A DNA stretch of 64,000 nt, taken from contig NW_024704757.1 of assembly GCF_018977255.1 (NCBI RefSeq), forward strand, positions 6,882,001 to 6,946,000, read 5' to 3'. Within the stretch, counting starts at the first letter, position 1, and each line of letters starts with the position of its first letter. The position numbers were made by a program, and so were the translations under genes. Positions 1 through 62,363 of this stretch are shown here, piece by piece. Under the pieces are notes generated by a model. The model searched no databases, had not been told where the DNA came from, and saw only the letters and a list, made by a program, of their open reading frames with translations. The stretch is from Callorhinchus milii. Lineage: Eukaryota.

Positions 1-3000
1 CGGAAAAGAACCTTAATATCATGGCTTCAGGGAGCACAGTTGGTGATGGCGATGGCAACAGAACAGCCAACGGAAATGGATCATCCAACCAGTTTGTGGT
101 TGGAAACGTCAGCAATAATGTAGGAAACGGAAGTATTAATGGGTCTTGGGGTGGATCCCGTGGCCCTTCATCAAGCACATGCCAGGCTTTTGCAGAAAAC
201 CTAGATGGCAAACTGGAAAATGGCCGTGGTAAACTGAATGCTTGGGGCAGCTTGGGCTCCACAGCTAGTGGGTCCCTGAATCCAAATGCCAACTTGGGTG
301 CCTGGCCGGTGTTGGAAAACGAAGTAAACCCTGTGCAAGGACCTGTGGCAGGTTGCAATTCAGGCACCAATATACAACGTAGCACTGTAGGTCAAATGCT
401 GAATAACGCGAGTGTTAACTTGGGACTATCTTCCCATGCCTCCTGGGGAGCAGTGCAGGAGAATTCTGATGCAGAAGTTAATGGTACAAGGAAGGTTTCA
501 TTCAGTGGACAACCTCAAAACCTTAACACTGAAATGAATGGACCAAATAACACTACTAACCCTTTGACCTCTAGCTTACCAAACTCTACTAGTTCAATGC
601 AGACAAGTGAACTGCCTAAAATGGCGGGGCCTGGAGCCTGGGGTGCACCCTTGGGAATGAGCACAGTAAATGCATCTCAGCTTCAGGCCTCTTCAGCTAC
701 GAATGGCACTTCCGTTTCTCAGCTTGGCAATGGCGGAATCAGTGAGGGAATGAACAGTGGGACTTATGATGCGACTTGGGGCACATCTGGCACTAACTAC
801 GCTGGAGATAAATGCCTGAGCAGTAACATGGGGCAAGCTAGTGGCGACACTGTGAATGCAACTCCAGCACAATCTTCTATTAATGGATCGGGGAGTACCG
901 CTTACAAAAGTAATGGGGGAAGCAATAGAGGAGGGGTCACCTGGGAATCCGGTGTGGTCAACTCCCACAATCTAGCATGGGGAGCAGGGAACAGTATGGG
1001 CTCTGGAGGGACTCGAAGAGTCTGGGGTGGAAACCTAGCAACTAATGTAAACACTGGCACTAATGTCTCAAACGGGGAATGGAACAAACTGCCTAACAAT
1101 CATTCCAATAATGGTCTAAATGGAAATGGTAATAGGAAGGGATCAAATGGATGGAAAAGTCTAGATGATACTCTTTGTGGTCAGAACTCTAGTACATCAC
1201 AGTTGAACGAACAGAACAATATATGGGCCAAAGGTACTGCCGATAGTGAAGGGAGCACAGAGAGTACTGGGAGTCGCCACGACCGGGCGAGCGTAGGCAG
1301 TGGGGATGCCAACAGCACGGGAGGCAGGCGTGGTGAGAAAAGGAAACCTGACCAACCAGGGTCAGCCCAAAGTATTCTGAGTAGAACTGACTTGGACCCA
1401 CGGGTCCTTTGCAACACAGGTTGGGGTCAGACTCCAATCAGACAGAACACTGCCTGGGACACTGAACCATCACCCAAGAGTGATCGTAAGACTGACATTG
1501 GAACAGAGGCCTGGGGGGGTCACGTTTCCCAGACTTCAAACTCAGGTGGGTGGGGGGATGGACCTGGCCCAAACAGTAATGATACCTCATCAGTATCTGG
1601 GTGGGCGGACCCAAAGCCTACTAAAGTCTCTTGTAACACAGGCTGGGGAGACACCAAAGGCTCGAGCAGTCAAGGGGGGTGTGAAGATAATTCTGCTGCT
1701 ACAGGAATGGTCAAGAGCAATCAAACGTGGGGAGGGAATAAGGAGGAGAAGGTCAAACAGGGATGGACTGACGGACAGAAATCTAACCAAGGTTGGAGCA
1801 TGTCTGGAGGTGATGGATGGGGAGAGAATTCAAGAACTAGCCACTGGGGGGAGCCACAGAAGGCGAACTCGGGTGCCTGGGAAAGGGATAGGGATAGTGA
1901 TGGTGATAGGTCTGTGGCTGGCTGGAGTGAGCCTGTCAGGCCAGGTTCTGGCTCGTGCACGTGGGCAGGTAGCAACAATTCAAACCCCAATCATACAAAT
2001 GGCTGGAGAGAGGCAGCCAAACCCACTCCATCCCCGGGGTGGGGGGAACCGGGTAAACCCACTCCATCCCCAGGGTGGGGGGAGCCGGGTAAACCCACTC
2101 CATCTCCAGGGTGGGGGGAACCGGGTAAACCCACTCCATCCCCAGGGTGGGGGGAGCCGGGTAAACCTACTCCGTCCCTGGGGTGGGGGGAGTCAGTCAA
2201 ACCCACTCCATCCCCAGGGTGGGGGGAGCAGAGCAAACCCACTCAGTCCCCAGGATGGGGGGAGCCTGGCAAACCCTCTCCGTCCCCAGGGTGGGGGGAG
2301 CCGGGCAAGCCCTCTCCATCTCCAGGGTGGGGGGAGCCGGGCAAACCCACTCAGTCCCCAGGGTGGGGGGAGCCGAGCAAACACACTCAGTCCCCAGGGT
2401 GGGGGGAGGCAGCCAAACCTACTCAATCCCCAGGGTGGGGGGAACCGGGTAAACCCACTCCATCCCCAGGGTGGGGGGAGCCGGGTAAACCCACTCCATC
2501 TCCAGGGTGGGGGGAGTCAGGCAAACCCACTCCGTCCCCAGGGTGGGGGGAGCCAGCTAAGCCAAACAACTCTCCGGATTGGAACAAGCAACATAACAGC
2601 AATGGTTCTTGGGGACCAGGTTCCACCACAGCTAAACCCGCTCCCGGCTGGCACAGCGGCCCGGCCCCAGCAAAGGAAGACGAGCCCACAGGCTGGGAGG
2701 AACCTTCTCCAGAGTCTATCCGTCGCAAAATAGAGATTGACGATGGGACTTCGGCTTGGGGAGACCCAAACAAGTACAACTACAGGGGTGTGAACATGTG
2801 GAACAAAAACGTGCAGAGCAGCAGCAACGCTTCAGACCAAGCGGCGCAGGCACAACCACTGCAGCAGCCACCACCACCACCAGTGCAGCAGTTGCCACCA
2901 CAGCAGATGCCAGCGCCGAGTACCATGCCAAGCAAGGAGAACGGTGGCAGTGGTGAGTTTTATTACCTATGGCCGGGTGGTTCACGTGGCATTTGACAGT

Positions 3001-6000: not shown

Positions 6001-9000
6001 TTAATGCTTAGGTGATGATTAATATTTTAAGGGCTCTCTTGGAATTGATGAAAATTGGTAACTGATGTGCTGCGGAGACCGAGGGCATTGGTTTGCTTCA
6101 TTGATTGGAATAGCAGAGTCCCAGTGTGGGTGGCTTGAGAGTAGAGAGGTCAGTTTTGCTCTACCCGTGGGACAGTGGATGCCCGTGGCTTTGCTGGTAC
6201 TTGCACCGGGTTCCGAGATGCTGGAGTTCCAAGGTGCAGGAGAAATGATCCAAGAAATTATCTGAAGAGAAAGAAAGGTTTTCCAGAAGAATATGTCTGT
6301 AAAAGGTAATTGATCGTTTTCCACAGCCTGGGGACAAAATAGTGGCTGCTGTTGAGTGGCTATGATAGTCCTGGGTGGAGAAATGGTTTGCTTTGTGATG
6401 AGCTAATCACGTCTGTTACTGTGGTCGTAACTGATCGTGTTCATACAGGAAGGACTTGGACAATAGTGGCACCAAGTGGCTGCTATAGAGATTGCACTCA
6501 ATGCAACATTAAACGCAGGGAGGGGCATGTTGGAGAGGGGAAGGGGTTACATGGAGGGGGAACAGTGGGAGGGTCGAGACTGTGAATTGGTGGGGCTTGA
6601 CACTGGAAGACTAGAACAAGGATAAAAGCAAGAAGGTATCCATCTGACTCTTCAATTCCTACCAAAGCCCCTTCTGTTCCCAGACTAAAGCACTCTGAGA
6701 TGCCGTCTAGCGTGAAGAGCCCTATATAAATGCAAGTTATTTTTCTTGTTGACTGACCTTTCATCTACTGTTGGAGCTCTGGGATGTTACCCTGCATGAG
6801 CTGGGCACTATACGAATGCAAGTTGTTGTAGTTGTTATTGGTGCAATGCTCCAGTGCACAGCACAGTGTCGGAGGGGAGGGGGAAATGAAGCTGGAACCT
6901 CGATGAAGAGTAGATCCATTGTGGGGTTTGGGGGAAGCAACAGATGGAGTGTCACGTTTTAGTGAACAGGCCGTGGAAAATATTCTCTTTGTGGGTGACC
7001 TGCCTTTTCCCGCTTGTTGTGTTGAGTCGTGAGACATTTATGTCTAAAATACCGTCCATGATCCACTCACCACTCGGTCCATGAGTACCGAGTGTCTCGT
7101 CTTCAGAAGGATATCAACTGGGCTTTTTTTTGTTTTTCCTTTTATTTACTGAAGGTTGGGGAGAGTCTTACGGCGTTCAGACAAAGCCAGAGGCTTGGGG
7201 AGACTCGTCCGCACTAAGTGCGCCAATGGACAATGGAACCGCAGCCTGGGGACAGCCCATGGACACCGGATCATCCGGCTGGGGAGAGTCACTTAATGAC
7301 CGTGCTGGTACCTCTGGTTGGGGCAACACTCCCGCTGCCCCACCAACTACAAACAGAGCGGGTAAACCTCCTCCCTCTTACTAAATTTAACACCGGTACA
7401 ACTATTGGACTTTGGGCACAAGTCATTGTGGGCAGGGCCTCGGGGTTCAGTTTCCCCAAGGCCAGCACTGGTGTGACTTGCTATTAATCGAGACAAGCCA
7501 TTGTGTTCAACATCAGTTGGCACTCTGGTTGTAAGTGCTACTTGTTAATCCTCACTCTGCTCATTGCATGCAGCCTTTCTTCATGAACACTTGCTGTAAA
7601 CTCTATGCTGCCACATACATGACCTGAACAACTCTTTTGATTTCCCCCCTTGCTCCCGTTACCCTCTCTGATCCAGGGGTAAAGCAATTGGCCTGCACTC
7701 TGGCACTGGTGTCATTCCTCTCTGGAGGGAGAAACTGACTGCCCAACATCAACACCCACAAATTGAACTTGTTTCATCAATCTGATAGTAGGTGGCAGTC
7801 AGCACACACAGGCAGGCAATCTGTCCGTCTATACTGGGGTTTAATTGCAGCAAAACTGTTTTCTGTGTGCGTTGCATGCCATTAACCGATGTCCATGAAG
7901 TACTTATAGAGCCGTTGGTAGTTGTTCAGGCATCTGAGGTGAGTGACTTGGCTGAGGGCTGAGCTGCTGGGAAAGAAGCAAAGTCCAGATAGTGCAAGCC
8001 AACATTGATGCTGTCTAACATCAGCTCAGCTTGGCTTTAATGCTCTGTTCTTTCCAGGCCCCAAACCTATGCAAGATGGCTGGTGTGCCGAGGAGGCGTC
8101 TGTGCCAGGGACCCGGCACTCCAGCTGGGAGGAGGAGGAGGGAGATGTGATGTGGAACAACAATGGCTCACAGGACAACAACGCTACAAACTGGGCAGCA
8201 AAAAAGATGGCGCAAAAGGTAGGCCTCATGGGTCTTGGTGCCAACTTGATGAATTATGAACTGTATGTTTTCATCTTATGTCTGGAATGCACTGCCTGAA
8301 AGGGCGGTGGAAGCAGATTTGATAATACCTTTCAAAAGGGAATTGGATAGGTTCTTAAAAAGGAAAAATGTGCAGTTCTATGGGGTAAAAGCGGGGGAGA
8401 GGGGAATAGTTGGATAGCTCTTTCAAAGAGCCAACACAGGCACGGTGGGCCGAATGGCCTCCTCTGTGCTGTATGATTCTGTGATTCCGACATATTAACC
8501 GTGTTTTTGCAATGCACTTGTTCCACTACCATCACTGCCACATTAATTACGAGGATGTCCCAGCGCCTTGGGATGTCCTCCCGACGTGAAAGGTGCTGTG
8601 GAAATATAATTTGTTGTTGTCTCTGCCAGCGGGGCAGCAGTAATGCAGTGGGGGGATGTGTGCTCGGTGCCCCCTCACCTGCTGCTGATCTCTGAACTAG
8701 TTAATGTGTTGTGAGAGCAGAGGAAGCAGAAAGTGGATGTGTCTGAGTTAAGGCGGTTATGATAGTGTAGATCATGACCTGTGTGTAATGTGCAGGTTGT
8801 GTTCGTAATGTGTATGAGGTTTTAGCTGATGAAGTGTCTCTTTTTTTAAGCAGGGAACAATGAAGATGGGGAACAAAACAGAGGAAGTATGGATGAACCA
8901 ATTAATGAAACAATTCTCAAACATTGGATTTGCTGTGAGTACAAAGGGATACCTGGAGCCTTCTTACTCTCTCTCTCTCCCACACACACAAACATACTGG

Positions 9001-11156
9001 ACATTGCTGCAGTTTGAATCTTTTCCAGTTTGCTTCCAGATTAACAAAAGACAAATACTGCAGCTGCTGGAAATCTGAAATAAAAACAGAAAAGGCTGGG
9101 AACACTCAGCAGGTCAGGCAGCATCTGTGGAGAGAGAAAAGTGAATTAACGTTTCAAGTCGATGACCTTTCATCTCTGATCTGACGAAAGATCATCAACC
9201 TGAAACATTAACTCACTTTCCTCTCTCCATAGATACTGCCTGACCTGCTGAATATTCCCAGCCACTTCTGTTTTTGCTTCCAGATGAGCCAGATTCTAGT
9301 CGCGAGTTGGAGTGAAGGACTGAGTTGTATATAACTCTGATGACTGTTGCATCAAGTTCTGTATATAATGTGGGGTCAGGACGGACTCCAGGACACCGAT
9401 AACACTTAAGACTTCTGGTGCTGATTAACTGGTCCCAGTGACTCCTGCCTTCAGTGCAGCACAGCGTCCTGGCGATGCTGAGCAGCCAACAGCCACTCTA
9501 TACCGCTGAGGCTGATTTATGGGTTTACGGGCTGAATTCTATTCTGGGTTCAAACCTTACATCGTGGTTGAGGCTACGTCTAATAGCGGGGATTTGGATT
9601 TCATTGTGCTGTGGAAGCACACGTGTCTAGATATTTCCCGAGGCTTGTTATTGTTCCTCGATTATTTTTCTGTTAGTTTTATATTCTGAATGTTTTGTGT
9701 TATTGTTGCAGAGGGACCCTGTTGAAGAAGCAAAGAGCAATAAGATGGATCTTCCTGTGGGTAAGATGGCGTTGATAATAAATTCATCTTCCTTACTCTC
9801 GTTATCAGCTTTCAGACAAGTCAAACAAACGATGTGGGAAACAAATCCATGAGCTATCCCCCCTTTTTAGGTATGTTAAGAGACAAGAGACTGGAGCTGG
9901 ACAAGCACGGACTAAATGTTGGCGAATATACTGGCATTATCGGGAAAGGGCCGGGTTCTCGCCCCCAGATTTCCAAAGAGTCTTCCATGGATCGCAATCC
10001 TTACTATGATAAGGTCAGTTTTGCTCATTGTACAGAGAGGAATTGCTTAGCTTCTGTGCGAGTTTGAGAGACTAAGCTTGTGTATGAGGAGGCACAATGT
10101 GAGATTGAAGGCTTGTGAGACACTTGTGAGATGAGCGCGCTGATCACTACGCTACAAGGATTCTACTATAATGAGATTCGGGGTGGGGAGGGGGGGGTAC
10201 TATTATTGGCACTAATAATAATAACATTTGATATAGTGCCTTATCATGTCAAAACTTATAAGAGTTACTCTGGCAAATGAGGGGAAGAAGAGGGAAGGGG
10301 AGTAACATAACATGTAGGAGTAGGCTATTCGGCCCTTTGAGCCTGCTCCGCCATTCAATCATGGCTGATCTTCTAATCTAACTCCAGCTAAGAAGGGAGC
10401 GAGGGAGGGTGAGAGCAAGACTAGACCAGCTATCTGTAGAGCAGCCTGAAAATCACTTTGCTTCTATGTTTGTGAATGTGTTGTGCTATGATGTTTGCTG
10501 CTTGTTTTGTGTGCACTATGTGGTTTACATTCCTGGTTGCCACTGGGCTGTACACAATGCAGCTGTTTGTGTTGGCTGGTGAGTCTTGCCTATAACTGTG
10601 CCTGTCCTTGTCAGCTAGCTATTAACTAACCCCATGTTTTTTCTCTTGTTTCTGCCCTTGCCACCGCTGCCTCTGCTGTGGGCTCTGCTCTGCGTGTGTG
10701 CCTTTTCCAACCCTCTTGTGTCCCCACCACCGGTTCGTGTCTGGGTACTTGTTGAACTTACTACTGTCCAGCTGTCTTTGTCTCTGTCACATCAAGACGG
10801 CATGCTAGCTGAGGAGCCCCAAACCTTACCATACATGTCCACACCAAGCACGAAGCTGCTCCCCTCAAACAGTGCACTACCTAATCAGGCCATGGGCTCA
10901 ATGGGGCTGGGCATGCAAACCGGGAACCCTGGCCGACAGGTAAGCCTGGCAATCACCACTCCACAGCCTCCTCGCAGGCTCCCACTGCAACTGTGTTCAC
11001 TTACAGCAAATCCCAGCACAATTTCTTCTTTTCACCCCTTTTTAAAAAATCTTTTGTTTTTTCTTTGTTGTTTGCCCATGCACCCACACACCACACACGC
11101 ATCGCACACACCAGACACACATCGCACCACACACATAAACACACACATCGCACCAC

Positions 11157-11187
<31 letters not shown>

Positions 11188-14100
11188 CATCCCTAACCTA
11201 ACAAACATCTATCCACCTCACCCTTTGGGCAGCGTATGTGATCTGTGTGTTCCTCCCGTGTGTTGCTCTGTCTGCACATAGCCTGGTTGTGCTGAACTCT
11301 GTAGGCTGGTGGTCGCTGAGCCCAGCTAGCTGTGCCCACTAACTCTCTGCTTTCCTTTGCAGAATGGCAATCCGAACCTATATGGCGGCAGCAATGCAGC
11401 AGCACAAGCCAGGGGGATGCAACAGCCTCCAGCACAACCTCTTAACTCATCTCAGCCTAATCTCCGCACTCAAGTGCCTCCTCCATTATTATCCCCTCAG
11501 GTATTGGTGATTGGGCTGTGCCATGGGGTGGGGGGGGAGTGTTTGTGCTGTTACGTTTGGGATTTGTTTGCTGGATTTGATGGCGTTTTGGTGTGGGGGG
11601 CTTTGGGGGGTGGGGAGCAAGGGCAAGATGTAGGAGCTCTACCACCAGAGGGCAGCAACACCTCATTTTCCACAGCCATTTTCCCTACAAATAGGGAGTG
11701 GGAACAAGGATGACATTCAGCTCATCAGGCCTGCTCCTGCCACACCTTCCCCCCCACCCCTCACCCACCCCCACCACAGATAATCCAGCAAAACTCCCAA
11801 TTAACCATGTTCACCTCTCTGCAGCCCGTGCTGTGCTCTCAGGCTTGTAATTTATCCTGGTTATTAATCTGCAAGGATTTGAGTAGACTGCCCATTTAAT
11901 CCCACTGTCGTCGCTATCCCCATTACCCATTTACGTGTTCTTGTATCACAGCAGCAACAGGTTACATTTACACGGCGCCATTCACGTCGGGAGGACATGA
12001 CAAGGCACTAGGCAGTCGGAGACTTGGACCCGAGCTGGGGGTTGGGATCAGGAGGGAGTGGAAGGCAGGGAAGGTGGGGGTAGGAGGTTGACCGAAAGTG
12101 TGGTCAAAGAGGAGGGTTTTGAGACATGCCCTGAAGGAGGCAAAGGAGGGAGCGAGGTGAAGGGACTGTGGGATGGAGTTCCAAAGGGTGGGGGCAGAGA
12201 CTGAAGGCCTGACCTACATTGATAGGGTGGGGAAATGCCTATCTACTTCCCTCTTGAAACCCACAATGGATTATTAGCTCCTCGCCTGGTTTCTAACTCT
12301 GATCCTCTATCCCTTCTGACAGGTTCCAGCATCATTACTGAAGTACACAGCAGGCAACGGGGGCCTGAACCCTGCACTATTAAACTTTGCCCCCCAGCAG
12401 GTAGCCATGCTGAACCAGCTGTCACAGATCTCTCAGCTCCAGGTACGTCAGTCGCTACGCTGACTGCGAGCTCTGTGCCTCTCCGCAGCGGCTACAAGCG
12501 GCTTCATTTTTATTCTCTCTCTTTCCCCCAATGCCAGCGGCTGTTGCTGCAACAGCAAAAGGCTCAGAACGTACGGAACATGCCGGGCCCTCTCCGCCAG
12601 TCTCCAGAACAGGTACCAACTGCCCTCCTCCTTCAGGACCCACCTCAAGACGCTCCTCTTCGACCGTGCTTTCAATCTCCCTGCTTCCCCCCCACCCTTG
12701 CCCTCCCCCACCCTGATCCTCAGTTCGGATCCGTAACTCTGTCTGTCCAGCGCCTTGGGACATCCTCCCGACATGAAAGGCACTACATAAATGTAATTTT
12801 GTTGTTATTATTTGCTGGATCACTTCTCGCTATCTGGAGTCTTTGTAACTGTGGCTTAACATCTGCCCCGTGGCCTGGTTATAAACACTCAGGCACAGCG
12901 TGCGATGACGGTAGTTGGCAGGGTGTGCATTCCGTTCTTCAGTGCGTTGTCCTTGTAACCATTCCAACGCAGTGCTCTGGGGTGAGCTGTAATTGTCACA
13001 GGTGCCGACCTTCGGATGAGACCTTAAACATAGGGTCCCGTCTGCCTGTCCAGGTGGGCGTTAAAGATCCCATGGCACTATTTGAAAAGAGAAGGGAGTT
13101 TCTCTCCTGGTGTCCTGGCCAACAATCCCCCAAATAAAATTGGTCGCTCGCTCCATTGTGAGGCTGTTTGTGGATCACTGCCGTGCGCAAATTGGCTGCT
13201 GCATTTCGCCCACTAAATACACAGTCAATTCACTTTACAGTATATCTTGTGAAGCGCTTTGAGTCATCTGGAAGACATGATAAGGCGCGATACCAAATGC
13301 AAGGATTATTGTTGTATCCTGTGAAGCGCTTTGAGACTTCTCAACGACGTAAGGCGCAAGGATTATTCTTATGATGATATTCTCACTGTAAAAGACGGGA
13401 AAAATTGAGGGTTGTGGATGTGCTGTGATGTAATAACCCAGTGGAGTTGCCTCGCTGGTTCTGGCCGGCTCCTGTCACTGACATTGCTGTGTTATCTCAC
13501 ACGTTAAGGCGGCTCGTGTGTTCAACGTGCAACAGATGCTGCAACACCCGCGCCAGATGGACACCAGCCTCCTGATGAAGCAGCCACAGCCTCAGCCGAT
13601 GCATCAGCCCTCGGTGAAGTCCTTCCTGGAGAACCTCATGCCCCCCACCCCTCCCGAGCTGCAGACAAAAGAGCCGCCTTCGCTGCCTTCCTACAGCAGC
13701 TACCCTTTAGGTGGGTTTCCCCGACCCAGGCCAGGCCAGCCCGAGGCTGCTCATGCCCCCCACATGCCCTTAGACTATTCCATGGCCAAAATGTTTCCTA
13801 CCGACTGCAGCCCCGGCCTCCTTAGCCCGCCCCTGTGTAACCAAAACAGCCACCTGCCTGGCTCGCCCAGCCATCAGCGGTCGACGAGGAAGCCTGTCAA
13901 TCAAGATAGCAGGTCTATGTCAAGAGGTGAATACACATCCGTTTGTCTAAGCTTTACTCTGCCAGTGCGCCCCGGGGAACCCGCAAGGTTGAGTCCAGTC
14001 GGGGCCGTGAGTCTCTCTCTCTCTCTCTCTCTCTCTTTCTCACTCTGATGTTACATAGCACGGTGCAACTGTGTTCGAAGCTCCTGCTCTGCTAAGGCCT

Positions 14101-17100
14101 TCAGGGTGGTGGCTGTGGCTCAGCGGCTTTCAGCACAGGCCGGTGTGTAAGTACTGTGCGTGGTTGTTGGTCTGTTTGCTGGCGGACGTGTGAAGAAGCC
14201 CAGGCCTTGAGCTGTACGCACTGAGTCTTGTAGCATAGTGGTTAAGGCGCTCGCCTCGCAAGCTAGAGGACCCGGGTTCAATTCCCGGCTGGGGCGAAAC
14301 TTGTGTTTACCTGGCAGTAAGTAGGAAGCCAGTTGTTAGAGTGGATTGGCGGATCGCTTTCCAGGGGGTAATAAATAATCATTTGATGGGGGTTAAAAGA
14401 AAGACTGAAAGTCTGCCTTGGAACGCCAGAGTTCAGGTCTGCACTGCACCCGGCTGTGACAGTACTGAAGTCTAACCACTGTCATTCGTCTTCAGTAATA
14501 AGCCAGTCGCTGTCCGTGTTGCCTGCTGAAAGGGGGAGGGGACTCCCTGCTGGGTCCTGCTTTGTGCTACTTCTAACGAAGCTGCTTTCTGTTCTCAGGC
14601 TTGAATCCCAACTTGAATGTAAACAGCCTGGATTTCGGCAGTATTGTTAACCTGAAAGAGCCACAATCACAACAGTCCCGACTGAAACAGTGGACTGCCT
14701 TGGAGACCCTTCCTGTTAATACGTCTCTAGATCAAAACTCCAGCAAACATGGTAAGAACCCCAGCTCGATACAGATTCTTTAAATAATATTAATATAGTT
14801 CATTAATATTACCATTATTATTGGTGGTATTGATAACCCCAGCTCGGGTGCAAATCCTCGACTGTCCAGTGCCTTGGGACGTCCTCCTGATGTGAAAGCG
14901 CTGTGTAAATATCATTTGCTGCTGTTCTAAAATGACCTTGACATTTCCAATGTAACGCCACCAACACTGCATGTGATCATTGAACAACCTGTACAGATTT
15001 CCTGGGAGCACAGCAGGCTTGGAACCTGGTAGAAATTTGCACAAACGTTTTGAAGTGTAATTAATTTCCGTTTCTGCAATGTTTAATATAACTCTCACTC
15101 GCTCGCTCTGTCACACACCCCCGCACACACACGCACTTACTCTTATCACCCTCCCCTCACACCACATACACTCTCTTGTCTAACACTAAATATTACAGTC
15201 AATTCACTTTACGGTATATTCTGTGAAGTGCTTTTGAGACGTCTCGAAGATGTGATAATGTGCTGTGTCGAACGCAAGGATTATTATGATTTATTATTAT
15301 AGCAGTTTTGATTTTCCATCTCCAGGTGCTACTTCAAGTGGTCTTAGTATTTGTTCGTCGGGCAAGTTGCTTGAAGAATCTCCTTTTGGTCACTTTGACT
15401 TCTCCGGTAACTCCTTGGTCAGCCCTCCGGGATCCATTGGAGATGGCTGGCCCAGTGCCAAATCGCCCAATGATAAGCTCTCTAGCAATGTTAATTGGCC
15501 ACCAGGTAAGGTTATTCAGCTAATACTGCAAAACACCACAGATGCTGGCAATCTGACATTAAAAACAAAGGTCAGTGGGAACACGCAGCAGGTCAGGCAG
15601 CATCTATGGAGAGAGGAAAATGAGTTAAGGTTTCAGGTCGATGACCTTTCGTTAACTCATTTTCCTCTCTCCATAGATGATGCCTGGTCAGCGTTCTCAG
15701 TGACTTCTATTTTTATTTCAGGTTATTTAGCTGCTGTGTCTGTCTGTCTGTCCTAATCCTTCGTCAAACGTTTATTCCAATTTCTGTTGTTTTCTCAGCC
15801 TTGATAGTAAGTACAACAATTCGTACAACAATCAATTGTACTTTCAATTTGATTTTTCTTGCAAAATTCGTAAATAAATCATTATAATTTGGTCACTCAA
15901 TCCACAACCGTCTGTGGGACGGACACTGCTGTGTGCAATTGACTGCCGCGTTTTCACCCACAAAATATAGTCAATTCGCTTTACAGTGTATTCTGTGAAG
16001 CGCTTTGAGATGGTCTTGAAGACATGATAAGGTGCTGTATCAAATGCAAGGATTATGTAGATTACCTATTATTAATATAGTTTACCGACCCATTTGCCAG
16101 AGGAAAGAGCTTCTCCCTATTTACTCTTATCAAAACCCCTCATAATTTGAACATATCTATTAAATCTCCCCTCGCTGTTCTCTGCTCTAACAAGAATAAT
16201 CTCAGCCTTTCTAGTCTCTCTACATAGTTGAAGTCCCTCATCCCTTGTACTTGCCATTTGAATTTTTTTTTTGCAGTTCAGCTCAGGAACCTTGTATGTT
16301 ATTGTCAGTTAGAAACTGATGTGAGCCGTGTGGATGAGAGACTTGTTGGTTCAGGGTCAAGCGCTCCTGTCAGCTTGTCTGTACACAGCCGGCTGCTGTG
16401 TGTGTGAGTGGGAAGCCTACTGGCAGGCTGGCCTTTGCTGTTCTATATCCATCACTTGTTCTCTCCTAGCTTCACCGCTTTTGTGTGTGTGTTTTTTCCT
16501 GCTAGAATTTCGTCCTGGTGAACCTTGGAAAGGTTATCAAAACATTGACCCTGAAACTGACCCTTACGTCACTCCCGGCAGTGTGATGACTGGCCTGTCC
16601 ATCTCCACCGCCAGGGATCTCGACCTCCTCAGGGACAGGAACAACGGTAGGTGCTATCTCTGGTGGCTCTTTCTGCTTGTGTGTGTGTGTGTGTGAGTGA
16701 GAGAGAGAGAGAGAGAGAGACTGTGATGGTGGGTATTTTACTGTCTGATACCTCTAACTCTCTCTTGCCTTGTTTCCCAAAGGGTCATCGTCCTCTATGA
16801 ACACCACGCTGCCTTCAACTAGTGCCTGGTCCCTTGTTGGTGCCTCCAGCTACAATAGTTCCCTCAGCAGTACAGCACAAAGCACTCCAGGTCAGACACA
16901 GCCCCAAGTCTCGCCACCAGTGAGAGACTGTGCACTGTTTCATTTCCCATTGGATTGATGCACGCTCATTTTTTTCAAACTCATTTTGAGCACAAATATT
17001 GACTTTGGAAAACCTAATTCTAATCTTGTTGTTTTTAATGTAATCTTTTGTTGTGCAGTCCTGTAGCTCAGTGGTTAGAGCACTCGCATCGCAAGCGAAA

Positions 17101-19376
17101 GGACCTGGGTTCGATTCCCGGGCAGGGCAATACGTGAGGCAAGTTTCCTTACTCCAAACGCCTCTATTTACCTATCAGTAAGAAGGAACCCGGTTGTTAG
17201 TTGATTGGCAGATTGCTTTTCCGGGGGTAATAATCCCTTAAAAACAACAAAATTATATAAATATATATATCAATTCACTTTACAGTATATTATTTGTGAA
17301 GCGCTTTGAGACATCTCAAATGACATGATAAGGCGCTATATCAAATTATTATTATTATTTTATTATCATGTATTGACTTTCTTTTATTTGTGGTTTCACT
17401 TCACAGCCAGAATCGGTGACCCCAAATCCACATGGTCTCCTGGTCCAGTTACCAACACTTCCCTGGCTCACGAGCTGTGGAAAGTCCCGCTGCCTCCGAA
17501 AAACACTACAGCTCCGTCCCGCCCGCCCCCGGGGCTCACCAGTCACAAGCCTTCCCACTCCTGGGGGAACAGCTCGCTCCGCCTGGGGGTGGGATGGGGG
17601 AACTCCGAGTCCAGATACACCCCCGGTAAGTGCAGCCGCCAGGCTGGCAAAGTGACCCTCACACAGAGAGCCTTAGGAGCAGGTAGCCTGGCATTGCCTG
17701 AGAGCACTCCGATACGCTACCCCATATGAGGGTCACTATATGAATGCATGTTTTTAAGAGCATTGCGCATCAGTCTTTTAATGTGGGTGCGTGTGTATGT
17801 GTGTGTGCATATCAATCTATTATCTTTCAAAGATTTATTATAAACATCCTCGCATTTGGTCTTATCACGTCGGAAGGACGTCTCAAAGCGCTTCATGGGA
17901 TTTACTGTGAAATGGAGTGACTGCATATTTGTAGGCAAACGCGGCAGCACAATTATATGATAAATATACATATTTATAAAATACCTTTATGTGGATAAAT
18001 ACGTGGCTTCTAAAGTGAGACCGTTGTCTCCATGTTAACCTGATCGTTTTGTTTGTGTTACCCAGGTCCAAGCTGGGGTGACATCAGCTCAGGGAGAATA
18101 ACCAACTGGCTTGTTCTCAAAAACCTCACGCCTCAGGTAAGCTCAGCCAGTGGCCACTTACAGTTTATTGGTGGTCACATCAGCCAGGCGAGCTTTCACA
18201 CTGTGTCTGCCCTTCCCCTTGGAGGTGGGCTGACATCTGCTTCACACCTTGTGTGTGGGGTGGTGGGGTGTGCGTGTGAGATTCAGTCAGTGTTGAGCTT
18301 GCTCTCGTTCTCTGTAAGTTCTGACCATGTGGTTTGTCCCTGCAGATTGATGGCTCCACCCTGCGGACACTGTGTATGCAGCACGGCCCGCTGATAACAT
18401 TCCACCTGAACCTGCCCCATGGAAATGCTTTGGTCTGTTACAGCTCGAAAGAAGAGGCAGCCAAGGCACAGAAATCTCTGCACATGTAAGTCCTCATCGG
18501 TGGGGTGGGGGGGGAACTTTCCAGGGCATTGCCAGGTCCCATCTGCTTCCGTAGCATCCAAGGTTGCCCCGGCGTATAGAGTCCTGTAGTTCAGTGGTTA
18601 GAGCATTCATCTCGCAAACGAGAGGACCTTGGTTTGATTCCCGGCCGAAACCTTGCGCAAATTTTCTTGCTCCACACGCCTCTGTTTACCTAGCAGTAAG
18701 TAGGAACACGGTTTTTAATTGATTGGTGAGTGAATCGCTTTCCGGGGGTAATAATCCCTCAAAAAAAATATCTACGGCTGTTTGTGGGACACCCCTGTGT
18801 GCAATTGGCTGCCGTATTTCGCCCACAAAATACACAGTATATTCTGTGAAGCTCATTGGGACGTCTCAATGACCTGATAAGGCGCTACATCAAATACAAC
18901 GATTATTATCATTATTATTATTACTATGGGTCCGGTTTCTTGCGGGAAGGGGTGTTGAGTTTGCTGGTGATGGAACTACGCTGATCTCTCTCTCTCTCAC
19001 TGACAGGTGTGTTTTAGGGAACACTACCATTCTTGCCGAGTTTGCCAGTGAAGACGAGATTAATCGCTTCTTTGCACAAGGCCAGTCGCTGACCCCCTCT
19101 CCGGGCTGGCAATCCCTGGGATCCGGCCAGAGCCGCATGGGATCCATGGACAGCTCTCACCCCTTCTCCAACCGCAACGATCTCAGTCACTGGAACAGTG
19201 CTGGGCTGGCGGGGGGCGGGGGGGAGCTGCACGGCACTTCTCTCTGGGGGACCCCCAATTATTCCACTAGCCTGTGGGGGTCCCCGAGCATCAGCGAGAC
19301 CCGGGGCATCGGCAGCCCCTCCCCCATCAACGCTTTCCTCCCCGTCGACCACCTTGGTGGTGGAGAATCCATATGA
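1..19376 (+). CDS. TNRC6A: TNRC6A / GW182 (miRNA-silencing scaffold), 5'-truncated by the window edge
   Basis: Frame is already open upstream of ATG 21 (EKNLNIM). Phase-consistent GT-AG exons: <1-2952, 7155-7361, 8058-8218, 8854-8934, 9712-9760, 9871-10013, 10772-10939, 11363-11500, 12323-12442, 12538-12612, 13509-13710, 14599-14751, 15326-15505, 16506-16646, 16783-16890, 17407-17625, 18066-18136, 18346-18485, 19007-19376 (TGA). Motifs: GW repeats, [18 protein letters not shown], Ago-hook [11 protein letters not shown]2 ([14 protein letters not shown]), RRM ([33 protein letters not shown]), C-terminus [11 protein letters not shown]-terminal sequence recalls the A paralogue. Confidence 0.93.
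2001..2576 (+). repeat. Coding 36-bp tandem repeat, 16 units of [12 protein letters not shown], in the large TNRC6A exon
   Basis: Units counted in the translation from [12 protein letters not shown] to [12 protein letters not shown]; DNA unit about gggtggggggagccgggtaaacccactccatcccca. Confidence 0.97.
2985..3830 (-). mobile_element. L2-clade LINE fragment
   Basis: Minus strand encodes [10 protein letters not shown]. Related fragments at about 5355-5870(-), 11950-12230(-), 12620-12810(+), 37455-38400(+), 41175-41480(-), 56620-57075(+) and 63800-64000(-). Confidence 0.8.
4715..5100 (+). mobile_element. tRNA-derived SINE (older, longer subfamily)
   Basis: tRNA-like head plus a cctctgtttacctagcagtaagtaggaa segment. 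Related copies at about 14224-14390(+), 17058-17360(+), 18580-18925(+), 21300-21636(-), 26760-26958(-) and 60100-60328(-). Confidence 0.85.
8285..8490 (+). mobile_element. CR1-type LINE 3' end
   Basis: ttcaaaagggaattggat...gggccgaatggcctcctctgtgctgtatgattctgtgattc tail. Related CR1 tails at about 22640-22830(-), 23935-24380(-), 53660-53810(+) and 58470-58690(+). Confidence 0.7.
9073..9285. mobile_element. Palindromic non-autonomous repeat (Penelope-derived-like) with minimal hammerhead-like cores
   Basis: Imperfect inverted repeat with arms of about 105 bp, centred near 9178; related copies at 4490-4565 and 15530-15720. Confidence 0.7.
13000..13375 (+). mobile_element. Deu-domain-type SINE fragment
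   Basis: ttcggatgagaccttaaac...caggtgggcgttaaagatcccatggcactatttgaaaagag...gtgtcctggccaac resembles the central domain of DeuSINEs (LmeSINE1/SacSINE1 type, from memory). Other copies at about 24390-24775(+), 41580-41800(-), 49720-50070(+) and 62460-62760(+). Confidence 0.7.
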
Positions 19377-39446: not shown

Positions 39447-42400
39447 CTAGGGTTGGAGGGACGTCCCGGTATCCGGCACTCCCGCGTATCTGTAGATGTA
39501 CACAGTCCCGTCGTTCTTCCCCGCCAGGAGGCAGGCGCCTGTCTCTGCCCATTGGAAGAGGGACCAGGAAACATCAGGGCAGTGCGACAACATGGCTGTA
39601 AGCCGGCCGGAGGCCATGTCCCATATCGCCAAGGATCCCGGAGTCACAACTGCCGCGATCAACCGGTCCTTAACATCCCCATTGAGGTACCTGCTTAACA
39701 AATAAACATTCTCGTTTCAGCAGACAAACCATTTCTCCTGTCTCTGTGGCAAAGTGACTCAGCCACAGCGAGTTCAAGGCCCTTCAAAACCCTCCACGGC
39801 CTTGCTCCTTCCTACCTGATATTTGTTAAGTCAGGGTATTAGGGGATACAGGGCGAGGGCAGATAAATGGACTTGAGGTACAGATCAGCCATGATCTTAT
39901 AGCATATATGTTTCTACCTCTGTGACCTGCTCTCTCCATATCAGCCTGTCCACTCCATCCGCCCAGCAGGCTCCGGCCTGCTCCACGTCCCCCAACCATC
40001 AGCAGTTGGGCCTTCAGCCTCTGCCTCCACTCTTTGGAATTCCACCCCCTTTACCTTGCTCCCCACTTGCCTCCTTCAAGACCCTCCTCTTCGAATTCGC
40101 CTTTGGTCACCTTACCCCACCCACCCAGCCCTCCAGCCCTTTTGATCCCAACCACCAGTTCGGGTCCAAATCCCTGACGCCTTGGGACTTCCTCCTGACC
40201 TGGAAAGCGCTGTGTAAATGTCATTTGTTGTTTTACCTTCCTCTGCACTCTGGCGGCAGACAGTAGGACATGACAGGGCGACTTTTACCACTGAGGGGAT
40301 TAATGGCAACCAGTGTCGACACTGAAAGCTGATCTTGGCCGGGGAGCTGGCAGGCCCTGGCGTAGCGGTGAATCAGCAGAACAAACAGCAATCCCTGATT
40401 ACACAGAAGGAAAATAAGGTTAGCGATCACACCCACTCCCAGCACAAACACACTGGCTAACAGGCCGCAGACATGCTGGGGACAGAGACGCTGAGGGTGG
40501 GGATTGAGCAGCATCTCTCACCCACACACTGGGGTCCCTAACTCTGGCTGGACGTACAGCGGGAGGTTTTAACACATGACATGATGCTATTAGGGACTGA
40601 GTTACTCCCAAACAAATTTACTACGGAGCGACTCAAAAATCATCCATTTCGAAAATTGCTTCCGTTCCTTTTGAAAGTGCAACACATTGCAATTGTTTGC
40701 GGGCCAGGGTTCGGTTTGGTCTCTAGCGGACAGTGAGGCAACACTGATTTCACGGTAGTTAGAGAACACAAGTCACAGCACCGGGAGACCAATAAGAGGG
40801 GCGAGTGAGCGCACGTTGCTTGAACCCTGGCTCAATTATAGAGTCTCCAGGTTTGTATGAAACAAGCTGAGAACAGGATAAATCTGATCCACCGTTCGAT
40901 AGTCCCTGTGACTGTTCTCCCGTACAGTCGCTCCCAACAGTGTCCATCCAGGAGATCAATCTTTAATCCCTGGAGACTCCGGGACAATCCTGGAAGGTTG
41001 GCAACCGCCCCCCACCCGCCCGCCCGCCCCCACCCTCATCAGAGGAAAGACACTGTGGACAGCCGGGGCTTACACATTGGGAATAGGCTTTGTGGCAGAC
41101 AGTGCCGGGGAAGCTGTCGCTCAGATGAATCCTCTTTAGAAGCTGCCGGGTCTTTACGTTCCTGAGGGAGGACAACAACAACTTGCATTTGTACTGCGCC
41201 CCTCGTTTAGTGCAGGGTCCCAGAGCACTTGGCAATGGCGGAGCACGACACCGAACCGGGGTGGGGGGGGCGGGAGGAACCGTAAGCACGGCCGAAGAGG
41301 AAGTTCTTCAGGCACGACCTGAAGTTGGACAAGGAAGGGGTAACTTGGAGGAATAAAGGGAGAGTGTTCTAGAGTTTTGGGGTGTAGTGGCTGAAAGCCT
41401 GACCGCCGATGGTGAAACGGAGGGGACGATTGAGTGGGTTGGGGAGTCAGCAGGTTGGCGATAGGGAGGTGCCAGGGCATGAAACACAACAGCACATCCC
41501 TTCTTCAGCCAAGAAATCTAGCGAGTGAGAGCAGGAGAGAGGGAAGGAAGCAGACAGATACCAAGAGAAAGAGGGAGCCATGGAGTGAGTGACCAATTTT
41601 ATTTGAGGGATTGTTGGCCTGGACACCGGGAGAGAGAAACTCCCTTCTCTTTTCCAACAGTGCCACAGGATCTTTAACCTCCAGCTGAACAGGCAGATGG
41701 GGTCTCGGTTTAACGTCTCATCTGAAGGACGGCACCTGCGACAATGAGGTTCACCCCCCCCCCCCCGGCACCTCACTGGAGCGTCAGCCTGGACTGTGAG
41801 CGTCAGAGGCAGAGCGGTGCTGAGGGTGTTGGCAGCCCCACACTCACCACAATACAACGTCACTCGTGTTGGTAGATCCCAGCAGCACCTCCTCCTCGCC
41901 CTCAACCTCGCTGAACGCCAGGATCTCCTCTCGCAGCGACTGCAACAGCACCCCAACCTCCCGCCTGCGGACAGAACAGACCCCCATTTCAGCACAGCGT
42001 CCCTGACCCCAACCCACACTGCACCTCGACCATGCCAGGCTTCTTAACTGAGTCTTCAGATGTGACTCTCCTGCACCCAACCCCCCCACACCCCGGGCTC
42101 TGACCTGCCTGCTGTGTTGATGGTGAGCAGCTCCACTCGCTGCTGCTGGAGGGGGCAACAGGAGCAGACAAGCCTGTGTTTCCGCAGGCCCAGCACTGCG
42201 GTTATCTCTCCCGCCTGTACCACGCTGGGCTCCAGGTAGCTCCCGTCAGCGCAGCACAGCACACTGAGAACACACACAGCCCACAAACAGCATCAGCCAT
42301 CGAGCCAGAGAGGCAGTATGTGTCAAACATCTCCCCCTACCCCCCACCACCCCCACAGGCTTAGCTCGCTCACACTCCTCCCCCAACCCCCCATCACAGT

Positions 42401-45400: not shown

Positions 45401-48400
45401 ATTCAAATTACAGTAAACACGATTCAACAACAAATCACATTTATATAGCTTCTTTAACGTCGGAAGAACATCCCAAGGTGCTGATTTTTCACATATTCAG
45501 TTAAGCGAGCAAGGTACTTTCACAGCTGCTATTAATAATCATAATAACTCCGAATGCCTCAAAATATATTGAAAATAATAATAATCCTTGCATTTGATAC
45601 AGCGCCTTTTCATGTCGTCAGGACATCTCAAAGCGCTTCAGAATATACTGTATAGTAACTGTGTATTTTGTAGGGGAAATGTATTAAACGTAAATGGGAT
45701 TTCCTCGATATGAAGCTCACCTCTGGCCAGGCTGGCCCTGCGCCTGGGCTGTGACCGCCGCTGCCCCCCGGGTTCCCCTCCGGCCTGGGAGTGAGTGGGC
45801 ACAGGGAGAAGGAGCCTGTTCCCCAGCACCGAGCCAGCGAGGGCCACTTGCTGAGTCTCATGGATCATATCCCGGAAGTCAGTGTCGCTGCTCAATCCCA
45901 CATCAGGCTCCGGAGCAACGGCTCCAGGCTGCTCCCCGCAGGCCACTTTGGGGAAAGCCTCCTTCTTCCCAGCGTTCCCCAAAGGCTCCAGCACCGGCTT
46001 GTGTCTGCTCAGTCTGGAGCTCCCAGCACTGGGCACCAGAGGGTGCTTACAGCCCCCGCGTTTCCTGGGCAGATCTTTAGTGCTCGTCCCCAGCTGGTAA
46101 ACAACAACAATTTGCTTTTACACAGGGTCCTTCACGCCTGGCAGAGTCTCAGAGCGCTTAATAGTGATGGAGTCTGATCGGAAGCTGGGGGAGGGAGGAG
46201 GTGACCGTAAGTCCTCCCGACGTGAAATAGCGCTACACAATTGTAATTTGTTCTTGCTGGAAGCACAGTCAAAGAGGGGAAGGAAGGGGCAAGGTGGAGG
46301 GATTGGGGGAAGAGAGTTCCAAAGCTTCAGGGCGTAGTGGCTGAAAGCCCAGGCTACTGAAGAGAGAGAAGTAGGAGGCCGGAGCCAATCGAGCGGAGGC
46401 AGTGGTTGGTGGAGTGGGGAGTAAGCAGGTCGTAGAGATAGGGATGTGCCAGGGCGTGAAGGGATTTGTAGACCCACGAGAGGATCTTGAAATAAATCCG
46501 TTCTGTGATAGGGAGCCAGTGGAGCCTGGTGTAATGGGAGTACGGGGTTTAGTGTGGGTAAGTATGCAGCCGGCTGATGGTGGAGCTGGGGAGACCAGAG
46601 AGGAGGGCATTCGAATAGTCAAGGTGGGGGGTGACGACGGCGTAGACGAGGGTTTCAACTGGGTTGGGGATGAGGTACGGTCAGAGCCGGGCAATGTGAC
46701 AGAGATGGAGGAAAGTGGTCCTGGTCGGGGACCAGACGTGGGGAAAGAAGGACACCTGTGCGTCGAAACTGACCCTAGGTTACACACAGCTTCGGTGAGT
46801 CTGAGGGACAGGCCAAGGAGGTTGAGGAGATCAGAGCCGCAGGACAAAAGACGTTGACGGGAGCTGAGGAGTATGGCTTCCATCTTGCCAACGATCAGCT
46901 ATAGGTAGTTTGCGCTGGATGAAAGGCGACCTCTCCACTCACCTCGTTCTCCTTCTCGCTCAAGATATCACATGCCACAGAGTCTCCGGCAGAACATTCT
47001 GTCACACAGCCTCCCGCAGGCCTCCGCTCGGTCGCCTCTCCGTCTCTGGAAGCCGGAGTCTCAGGGAGCCCAGCTCTAGTGTTCCGCCCTCTCGCTCTCC
47101 TCCCAACTTGCCCTCCGGCTGACTGAATCACTTTTGTGGGCTGCGGAGTGTCACCCTGCTCCGGGGAGGCAGCCTCCTCCTGGCTGTTGAACAGTAACTG
47201 GGTGTCACTGAATTCCTCTCCGACCTTGGGGGAACCGGAGGCCCCAGTCATCACCTCACACCCCAGCCCCAGTCCCCCGCATCTCCCCCTGTGGCGGCTT
47301 CGGGACTTCCCTAGCTGGCTGTGGATCACGGCCTCCAGGTCCACCTGTCGCTGACGCTGTGACATGCGTCTGGTCGTCCTGACGTAATACTCCACTGGGA
47401 AGAGCAGCCCTTCGACCAGGGTGCAGGAGCTCAGGGGGCCTACAAAGGGCACCACACTGGCTCTGGTACCGGCTCCGACCTGGGACACAGCACTCTCTGA
47501 CCCGACGGCATCACCTCCATCGCTGCTCTTGATCTCTTCATTGCCTTCAGTGAGGCGACCGCAGTCACCCTGCTTGACTCTGTCGGGGGCTTCACTGTCC
47601 AGCGCCCCCTGAGTTCCCCCCGTACTGTCCCCCGCGAGTGGCAGAGGCCTGGCCTGGCTCCCGGTCCCATCGTCCCGCTCAGCCGCACACTCGATGTTCC
47701 CACCAACTGTTTCCCCAGGTCCATCACACCTGTGCACAACGCCTCCTGAAGCCGCCTGGTCTTCTTCGCCACCTGGGGGCACCAGCGGAGAGCTGTGTCT
47801 ATCGCCATCGGCTGCCCCCGTGGTGGCGAGCGGCTGACAGAGGTGGGTACTGTTGCAGGTGACGACGGGACACTGTAACTGGTTGACACCCGCAGACAGA
47901 GCTGCAGCCCCGGCACAGCCAGTTACGTGACCCCGTCTTCTCTTTAGCTTCAGGCGACTGGGAGCTTTGCCGGGGCCCCTGGCGCCCGGGTCTTGATTGG
48001 CTGAAGAGGGGTCGCTGGAACTCTCCTCAGCGCTTCCACTACAACTCCTCAGTGACGAGCTTAGGTCCAGGCTGATGGGGTCAATGACCTGTGGCTCCAG
48101 GTTAAATGTCACCAGTGTTTTTCTCTCTCTGCTGCTCTCCCCGGGGACTCGGGCCCCAGGAGGCGGGGCCTGACGTGTGTCCGGCACGGAGGTCTCCTCC
48201 TCACCTTCTATAAAAGATTCGCCCACAAAATACAGTCACTGCACTTTACAGTACAACCTGTGAAGCGCTTTGAAACGTCTTAAAGACACGATAAGGTGCT
48301 TTATCAAATGCAAGGATTATTATTATATTCACATGTAAATGCCGATGTAAATACTGGGAGGTGGATGTGAAACAAGCCAGGCAAACATTACAGTAAAAAA

Positions 48401-50785: not shown

Positions 50786-58315
<7,530 letters not shown>

Positions 58316-61514: not shown

Positions 61515-61690
61515 GTCGCTGATTGGCCAGGCTGGGAGGGTGGGCGGGGAGAGTGGGAACGTGAGTGTGGATTGGCCAGACAGGGAGGGTGGGCGGGGAG
61601 AGAGTGGAAACGTGTGTGGATTGGCCAGGCTGGGGGGGTGGGCGGGGAGAGGGCGGGGCGGGGAGCTCGGTGAGGATATAAGGAGCAGGA
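61515..61690 (+). promoter_or_regulatory. Promoter of the Ras-dva-like gene: three 49-bp CCAAT+GC-box modules and a TATA-like box
   Basis: ATTGG at 61522, 61571 and 61620, each followed by GGGCGGG; GATATAAG at 61675-61682. Confidence 0.7.
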
Positions 61691-61733
61691 GCAGGGCGGC
61701 TGGAGCACAGACAGCAGCTGTCACTCACTGGCA

Positions 61734-62363
61734 ATGTCTATGGTGGTTGAGAAGCAGAGGGTGCGCCTGGTGTTCCTGGGATCCGCTGGTGTGGGCAAGA
61801 CGGCACTCGTGCAGCGCTTCCTGGGGAACACGTTCGACCCCAGACACAGGCGGACGGTGGAGGAGCTGCACTGCCTGCAGTGCCAGACTGACAGCTCCCA
61901 GGGCTGGGTGGAGATCATGGACACCAGCGGCAGTTACTCCTTCCCAGCCATGCGCCAACTCTGCATCCGCCATGGCGATGTCTTTGCCCTGGTATACTCT
62001 GCCGAGGAGCCCGAATCGTTCGAGGAGATCAAGCGACTACGGGAGCAGATCCTAGCGGTGAAGCAGGACCAGCCCAGCACACCGATGGTGGTAGTGGCTA
62101 ACAAGGCAGACTTGGCCCAGGACAGACTAGGCTCGGCACAGGACATGATAGCGGCCATGGTGCAGTTGGACTGGGGTTGTAGTTTCCTGGAGACTTCAGC
62201 CAAACACAACCACAATGTGTTGACCCTCTTCAAGGAGCTCCTACTGCAGGTCCAGCTGCCCAGCATGCTGAGGTCTACCCTAGACCGCAGGAGAGACACC
62301 TTCCCCAGGGAGAGCCAGCCCAGACCCATCGGCAGCAAGAGCCACAGTTGTGCCATCTCCTAG
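61734..62363 (+). CDS. Intronless Ras-dva-family (RASD-related) small GTPase, 209 aa
   Basis: G1 GSAGVGKT, G2 HRRTVEE, G3 DTSGS, G4 NKAD, G5 ETSAK, C-terminal CaaX CAIS. VRLVFLG...HRRTVEELH and DTSGSYSFPAMR recall Ras-dva proteins. AATAAA at 62872-62877 and 63044-63049. Confidence 0.88.
   Translation: MSMVVEKQRVRLVFLGSAGVGKTALVQRFLGNTFDPRHRRTVEELHCLQCQTDSSQGWVEIMDTSGSYSFPAMRQLCIRHGDVFALVYSAEEPESFEEIKRLREQILAVKQDQPSTPMVVVANKADLAQDRLGSAQDMIAAMVQLDWGCSFLETSAKHNHNVLTLFKELLLQVQLPSMLRSTLDRRRDTFPRESQPRPIGSKSHSCAIS

Follow-up and report, generated by a model that had tools for sequence, protein, structure and literature searches.

TNRC6A and its tandem array

The window, i.e. the whole stretch of 64,000 nucleotides of Callorhinchus milii DNA that was analysed, opens inside a stop-free frame (3–2996) that contains the array under study and belongs to TNRC6A, for which nineteen coding exons were mapped between position 3 and approximately position 19376. 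The features referred to are listed below.

3–2952, plus strand: large GW-rich coding exon of TNRC6A, with a start that lies before the first position of the window; RNA contigs show its donor at 2952 spliced to 7155
1392–1460, plus strand: conserved tryptophan pair equivalent to human W470/W481, presumably motif I of the Argonaute-binding domain
2004–2582, plus strand: run of 17 tryptophans with a spacing of 12 residues, degenerate first and last units included
2019–2558, plus strand: core of the array, 15 in-frame units of 36 nt, each of 12 residues with one G-W-G
2161–2469, plus strand: candidate exitron of 309 nt with GT..AG ends, which keeps the frame and is missing from gene model P0140
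2682–2801, plus strand: conserved block just 3' of the array with tryptophans equivalent to human W734, W755 and W769, presumably motif II
7155–7361, plus strand: exon with the Ago hook, which matches the TNRC6A peptide in PDB 5W6V chain B
8058–19376, plus strand: the other 17 coding exons of TNRC6A (UBA-like, Q-rich, PAM2 and RRM regions)

Gene model P0001 predicts a protein of 2108 residues with Pfam matches to Ago_hook (1.6e-12), TNRC6-PABC (3.3e-108) and RRM, and with PDB matches to pieces of GW182 (2WBR, 2DKL, 3KTP and 5W6V); its GW-rich N-terminus, Ago hook, UBA-like, Q-rich, PAM2 and RRM regions place it in the GW182/TNRC6 family. The best named matches listed for it are TNRC6A proteins, and in a tree built from the last 800 residues of each of 23 proteins, just one of them a TNRC6B, it lies within the TNRC6A clade (support 100/99) as sister to two skate TNRC6A proteins (100/99). 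Its place in the tree is that of a cartilaginous fish, and the branch lengths suggest a chimaera. Named matches, Pfam domains and tree therefore agree on the identity proposed in an earlier, sequence-only reading of this DNA.

RNA contigs of runs X3, X4 and X5 contain the joint 2951>7154 with GT..AG ends, so the exon that hosts the array is present in spliced RNA; the next joint, 7360>8057, is found in contigs of X4 and X5. Spliced contigs over the host exon came from three of the four runs examined, in two studies, whereas contigs of run X1 cover introns and lack the 2951>7154 joint. One X5 contig extends 2402 letters beyond the mapped stretch. Part of the array region (1950–2620) was found in 12 of 24 sequencing runs, with half or more of it in three; observed shares of the 57 sampled words ran from 0.40 to 0.63, a range that includes the 0.44–0.48 expected for short forms and in which full, spliced and assembler-collapsed forms are not separable by word share. 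Further downstream, positions 13713–13926 are included in models P0138 and P0140, but the exon ends at 13712 in P0002 and P0003; this is likely to be an alternative donor in the region preceding the silencing domain.

Tandem Repeats Finder (TRF) placed a 36-nt array at 2018–2554 with 14.9 copies, 86% matches and 0% indels. In translation all 15 full units contain G-W-G, and the 17 tryptophans from codon 2004 to codon 2580 are exactly 12 residues apart, giving 16 W-to-W segments, the same number of units that had been claimed from the sequence alone; a degenerate half unit flanks the array at its start and a degenerate unit at its end. Eleven residues lie between neighbouring tryptophans, an acidic residue follows the tryptophan in 16/16 cases, and both the spacing (at least 10 residues) and the glycines on either side of the tryptophan in 15/15 core units are as in the GW/WG motif rule, in which glycines and small or charged residues flank the tryptophans. 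The sequence-only reading was right about the in-frame arrangement with one tryptophan per 12 residues but overstated the near-identity of the units, which differ by a mean of 5.05 of 36 bases and comprise 13 distinct sequences, only three of the 15 being identical; mean protein identity outside the tryptophans is 0.80.

An artefact of assembly, by which the true allele would have far fewer units, might be suspected from the best run, with its share of 0.63 of the 57 words. There is no N in or near the array region, 13 of the 15 units are distinct, and in a 31-mer graph of the region positions 2200–2459 form a unique path of 260 nt, which over-expansion by an assembler could not have invented; the path and the lack of N nearby make such over-expansion unlikely. 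Comparable arrays also occur in four other named lineages, and we consider an artefact of this kind very improbable.

The array might alternatively be important as RNA, in the form of a G-quadruplex or hairpin, with the peptide incidental. GGG is present at both glycine codons in 14–15 of the 15 units, so that G runs recur in each unit, and quadruplex formation had been raised as a possibility from the sequence alone. Against this, a search for four close G3 tracts found no canonical motif, and the G4Hunter maximum of 1.44 lies below the threshold of 1.5 and below the 1.64 reached in the rest of the exon. Allowing quadruplexes gains just 1.7 kcal/mol, the predicted fold is no better than those of shuffled sequences (z +1.05; 86 of 100 shuffles as good), and the class of variants depleted among the units is the one that changes amino acids. 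The quadruplex suggestion was thus not borne out, and we regard an RNA element as extremely unlikely.

The array region has no Pfam and no PDB match, and a single-sequence AlphaFold model predicted no fold (mean pLDDT 50.5, pTM 0.11; weak evidence, coming from one sequence). A folded repeat domain was rejected given the lack of matches and of a confident model. Proteins outside the TNRC6 family with similar repeats were rejected as compositional likenesses: the best such matches listed in a representative search were to low-complexity proteins, mucin-like and TRIM proteins among them, a TNRC6 domain was found in none of the ten scanned, and the aligned stretches in the four inspected were almost without tryptophan.

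Unit number and origin of the array across vertebrates

Units were counted as W-to-W segments between conserved anchors, with one protein per species. Among 51 named species, 30 have three units, nine have two, one has four and 11 have 7–14. The three-unit state is that of Amia, most teleosts, coelacanth, lungfish and amniotes, and was confirmed for primates in proteins of Callithrix, Cebus and Plecturocebus, as the sequence-only reading had put it for the human protein; human TNRC6A was absent among the matches listed, and a human peptide in the accessible part of PMC7917804 displays the last two units. Two units are found in eight frogs and Scleropages, and four in the eel. Higher numbers are found in three species of skate (7–8; Amblyraja 7, Leucoraja 8), four sturgeons (11–13), paddlefish (9), two bichirs (14) and the newt Pleurodeles (10), and a teleost-like protein, P0282, has nine. 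The 16 of the window is the highest count among the sequences compared. The last unit was kept in all jawed vertebrates examined.

These counts contradict the earlier claim that expansion is specific to this lineage, since 11/51 named species carry 7–14 units at the same interval; neither is the array a general property of orthologues, 39/51 of which have two or three units. The array is therefore less unique than the sequence-only reading held, yet the phenomenon is more general: a recurrently expanded site with 2 to 16 tryptophan units across vertebrates. The variation is centred on this interval, where the tryptophan count ranges from 6 to 21 (SD 3.3; 48 sequences), compared with 7–13 in the upstream interval (SD 1.1; 48 sequences) and 3–5 in the downstream interval (SD 0.5; 43 sequences); these figures exclude five sturgeon and paddlefish proteins in which the upstream anchor pattern was missed. 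Shark, other chimaera, gar, caecilian, turtle and jawless-fish TNRC6A proteins with the interval were not among the matches listed (120 in each of three protein searches), and sharks are accordingly absent from the unit counts, so that any estimate of the number of independent gains is a loose one.

Two groups differ from the remainder in other ways. In sturgeon and paddlefish TNRC6A (P0005 and four further proteins) the otherwise invariant motif I region fails the anchor patterns, with the changes seen directly in P0005; the combination of an altered motif I region with an expanded array could possibly reflect compensation. In frogs (P0028–P0033, P0035, P0038 and P0039) all eight species are without one tryptophan of the three-unit state, and a spacer of 30–35 residues takes its place.

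At the equivalent place the paralogues are short, with two segments in TNRC6B (two proteins) and one in TNRC6C (10 proteins). Compared position by position, each of the three Amia units corresponds to its counterpart in lobe-finned vertebrates (diagonal scores 37, 26 and 38), here coelacanth, lungfish, bird and tuatara, although the correspondence of unit 2 weakened once teleosts were added. Taken together, the short paralogues and the positional match make a short ancestral state with repeated gains the better reading of the sequences; on the species tree alone, an ancestrally long array followed by losses needs a similar number of steps. The nearest neighbour of a unit lies in its own lineage in 52.5 of 61 cases, as against a mean of 10.5 and a maximum of 22.3 when shuffled, a pattern that independent gains and concerted evolution fit equally well. 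Skate units do not cluster by lineage in this way (1.5 of 6 nearest neighbours), which is why the chimaera-like and skate arrays may share a single origin. Unequal crossing-over or slippage among units of 36–39 nt would both create and homogenise copies.

Constraint on the units and possible contacts with Argonaute

Variation among the 15 units of the window gave a pN/pS of 0.25, with 10 distinct synonymous variants over 9.7 sites and 10 nonsynonymous variants over 26.3 sites (p 0.023). Of the nonsynonymous variants, the S-P-G-W-G-E core (13.7 sites) has just one, and the 12.7 sites outside it have nine (p 0.008). Both p values are generous: the units have a common history and so are not independent, and CCG/CCA changes, a class that CpG decay could inflate, account for several of the synonymous variants; the constraint figures are also partly circular, the units having been delimited at tryptophan. 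Across six expanded arrays the tryptophan spacing is 11–13 residues in 67/68 cases, and the double spacing that loss of a tryptophan would give occurs once among the 68. In the bichir and newt arrays, where unit identity is 0.44–0.46 and the non-tryptophan columns are 35–39% off mode, the tryptophan column and one lysine column are fixed. From these alignments the units look to be under constraint, and they are also dispensable in part, given the missing tryptophan of the eight frogs and the two segments of Scleropages.

The cooperative binding of miRISC and its condensation are commonly attributed to tryptophan multivalency. In the human protein, motifs I and II presumably lie near W470 and W755 respectively, and the hook peptide (5W6V) maps to the exon that follows the array exon. 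The array coincides with none of these three human high-affinity sites (motif I, motif II and the hook, with the first two placed as above); it lies between the two motifs, and its human counterpart is W657–W693 by numbering taken from PMC7917804 and transferred through the marmoset protein. The portions consulted of PMC12388510, PMC5507773, PMC4551936 and PMC3018788 held no motif coordinates. Up to the hook there are 54 tryptophans in the window protein, compared with 43 in coelacanth (Latimeria) and 39 in marmoset (Callithrix), which upholds the earlier claim of more tryptophans in the Argonaute-binding domain.

According to the available part of PMC9262622, each of the three human AGO sites has at least two tryptophans at least 10 residues apart, AGO has three tryptophan pockets and one TNRC6 carries up to three RISCs; GW multivalency is described as driving phase separation of AGO2 with TNRC6B in the part seen of PMC9141834. 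When GW-I, -II and -III are removed, human TNRC6A retains little or no ability to bind Ago2 (PMC4787778, in part) and, the human units presumably lying outside those sites, three such units alone seem to bind Argonaute poorly. For these reasons we infer that the tryptophans of the array are weak candidate contacts that would matter by their number, rather than new high-affinity sites.

The reading that we favour, with a probability of about 0.55, is recurrent expansion of an ancestral three-unit tryptophan repeat, by which the protein probably gains further weak contacts with Argonaute, of the avidity type, in the interval separating the mapped motifs. Adjacent tryptophans 12 residues apart could fit two tryptophan pockets of one PIWI domain, and the array might thereby raise Argonaute occupancy, cooperativity or condensate formation. 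The unit of the window is 27% proline, compared with 5–19% in the other expanded arrays, and this proline-rich unit is unlike AGO-binding platforms, whose context is described as small and polar. There are 26 S/T-P pairs in the window array; the other expanded arrays have 0–7, which makes SP/TP richness peculiar to this genome. The Ser-Pro ahead of G-W in the unit occupies the position of human S690, in the last, conserved unit, and S690 is listed as phosphorylated in the accessible part of PMC7917804; the earlier proposal of proline-directed phosphosites is consistent with this alignment, and phosphorylation of the repeated Ser-Pro might, in this species only, tune the Argonaute contacts.

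Neutral tolerance is the main rival to an avidity reading and a serious one. It holds that a slippage-prone three-unit repeat in a disordered linker undergoes near-neutral turnover, in which extra copies are tolerated and tryptophan is kept by homogenisation or weak constraint with no gain in Argonaute binding. The differing counts of close relatives (the two skates; sturgeons and paddlefish), the tryptophan lost in 8/8 frogs and the lack of a predicted fold would all fit turnover, as would the mapping of human binding to three other motifs (PMC4787778, in part), and the expanded lineages have no evident biology in common. It accounts less readily for the bichir and newt arrays, which are unhomogenised and yet retain tryptophan, lysine and spacing, or for a nonsynonymous deficit concentrated in the tryptophan core; exactly three units in 30/51 species further suggests that unit number matters. 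We regard neutral turnover as possible but not probable.

A candidate exitron, known analogues and neighbouring genes

Within the array, 2161–2469 has the form of an exitron, being a GT..AG segment inside a coding exon with a length that is a multiple of three. Apart from its N-terminus, the protein of gene model P0140 is that of P0138 with 103 residues missing, and because the gap is off register with the units, simple deletion of units cannot explain P0140. This raises the idea of a splice-tunable module, in which the units, by bearing donor- and acceptor-like sites, would allow an in-frame exitron to remove more or fewer tryptophans and so set valency per transcript. The donor 9-mer, formed where two units adjoin, recurs at six places in the array and is also found once outside it, at the genuine donor at 7361 that contigs of X4 and X5 use, and any such intron would be 36n+21 nt long and so always keep the reading frame. 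On the other side, six of the seven proteins in the cluster of P0140 keep all units, the acceptor tract has three T where the gene's 17 annotated acceptors have 6–11, and in a further model, P0003, the array is bypassed from a non-GT donor; gene builders are apt to open GT..AG gaps where a repeat has to be fitted to shorter homologues, and the gap in P0140 may equally be an artefact of this sort. As inferred from their offsets, the X3 and X1 contigs both start 138 letters before 2600, at a branch point predicted from the unspliced array and eight letters short of the acceptor, which hints weakly that a spliced form is not dominant. We therefore think a splice-tunable module quite unlikely. In all, six donor-like and 13 acceptor-like repeat-borne sites were seen (2052–2484 and 2071–2539 respectively).

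Exitrons as described in the portion seen of PMC4484396 resemble the candidate in being in-frame GT..AG segments (here 309 nt) that encode disordered regions (in the candidate presumably so) with modification sites; the candidate differs in being known from one gene model alone. A broader proposal would make TNRC6A an Argonaute-valency dial, the unit having been amplified independently at least five times (2 to 16 copies) under selection on the gathering or condensation of RISC, with unit-encoded splice sites and phosphosites in this fish tuning valency per transcript or signal. We consider this doubtful.

As an orthologue, the window protein shares its anchors, its last unit and its tryptophan spacing with the three mammalian units of the vertebrate TNRC6A (GW182) Argonaute-binding domain, but has 16 segments where these have three between the mapped motifs. 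The vertebrate GW182 domain is described as stable in size in the text portions available of a survey of GW182 evolution (PMC4615383), which make no mention of an expanded TNRC6A site, and its supplement, as far as it was accessible, gave no match for 'tandem' or 'expansion'. Among the literature matches listed, with subscription papers outside their scope, there was no report of GW repeat expansion in vertebrate TNRC6A.

The closest analogue of the array is the WG/GW platform of plant NRPE1, the Pol V subunit, for which frequent and repeated tandem expansion (PMC4476159 and PMC2910046, each in part) and cycles of expansion and decay (PMC4476159, in part) are described. Both consist of recurrent, lineage-specific tandem units with retained tryptophans, in a region that in NRPE1 is disordered and binds Argonaute (PMC4476159, in part) and that in TNRC6A may be disordered; the likeness is one of analogy and not homology. 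In NRPE1 the platforms of different lineages have no sequence in common and work with AGO4 in nuclear RdDM, whereas in TNRC6A one homologous unit has been re-amplified at a fixed site of a cytoplasmic miRNA adaptor and the Argonaute contacts are putative. The expanding Argonaute platform known from plant Pol V would thus have a parallel in an animal protein. Moreover, a site with 2 to 16 evenly spaced tryptophan units constitutes a natural allelic series, with which it could be asked whether valency sets Argonaute occupancy, the threshold of condensation or the strength of silencing.

Other genes were also seen in the window. WD40 exons of PALB2 (Pfam PF16756, in three frames) lie on the minus strand at 39450–42292 and possibly extend to 48235; a frame of 446 codons at 46898–48235, for which there was no Pfam match, may be the large exon of PALB2. 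Exons of DCTN5 lie on the plus strand at 53457–57383. PALB2 and DCTN5 are near TNRC6A on human 16p12, and conserved synteny would fit this arrangement. At 61674–62360, on the plus strand, a single frame of 229 codons spans a whole Ras-family domain (E 6.7e-34) and is apparently intronless.
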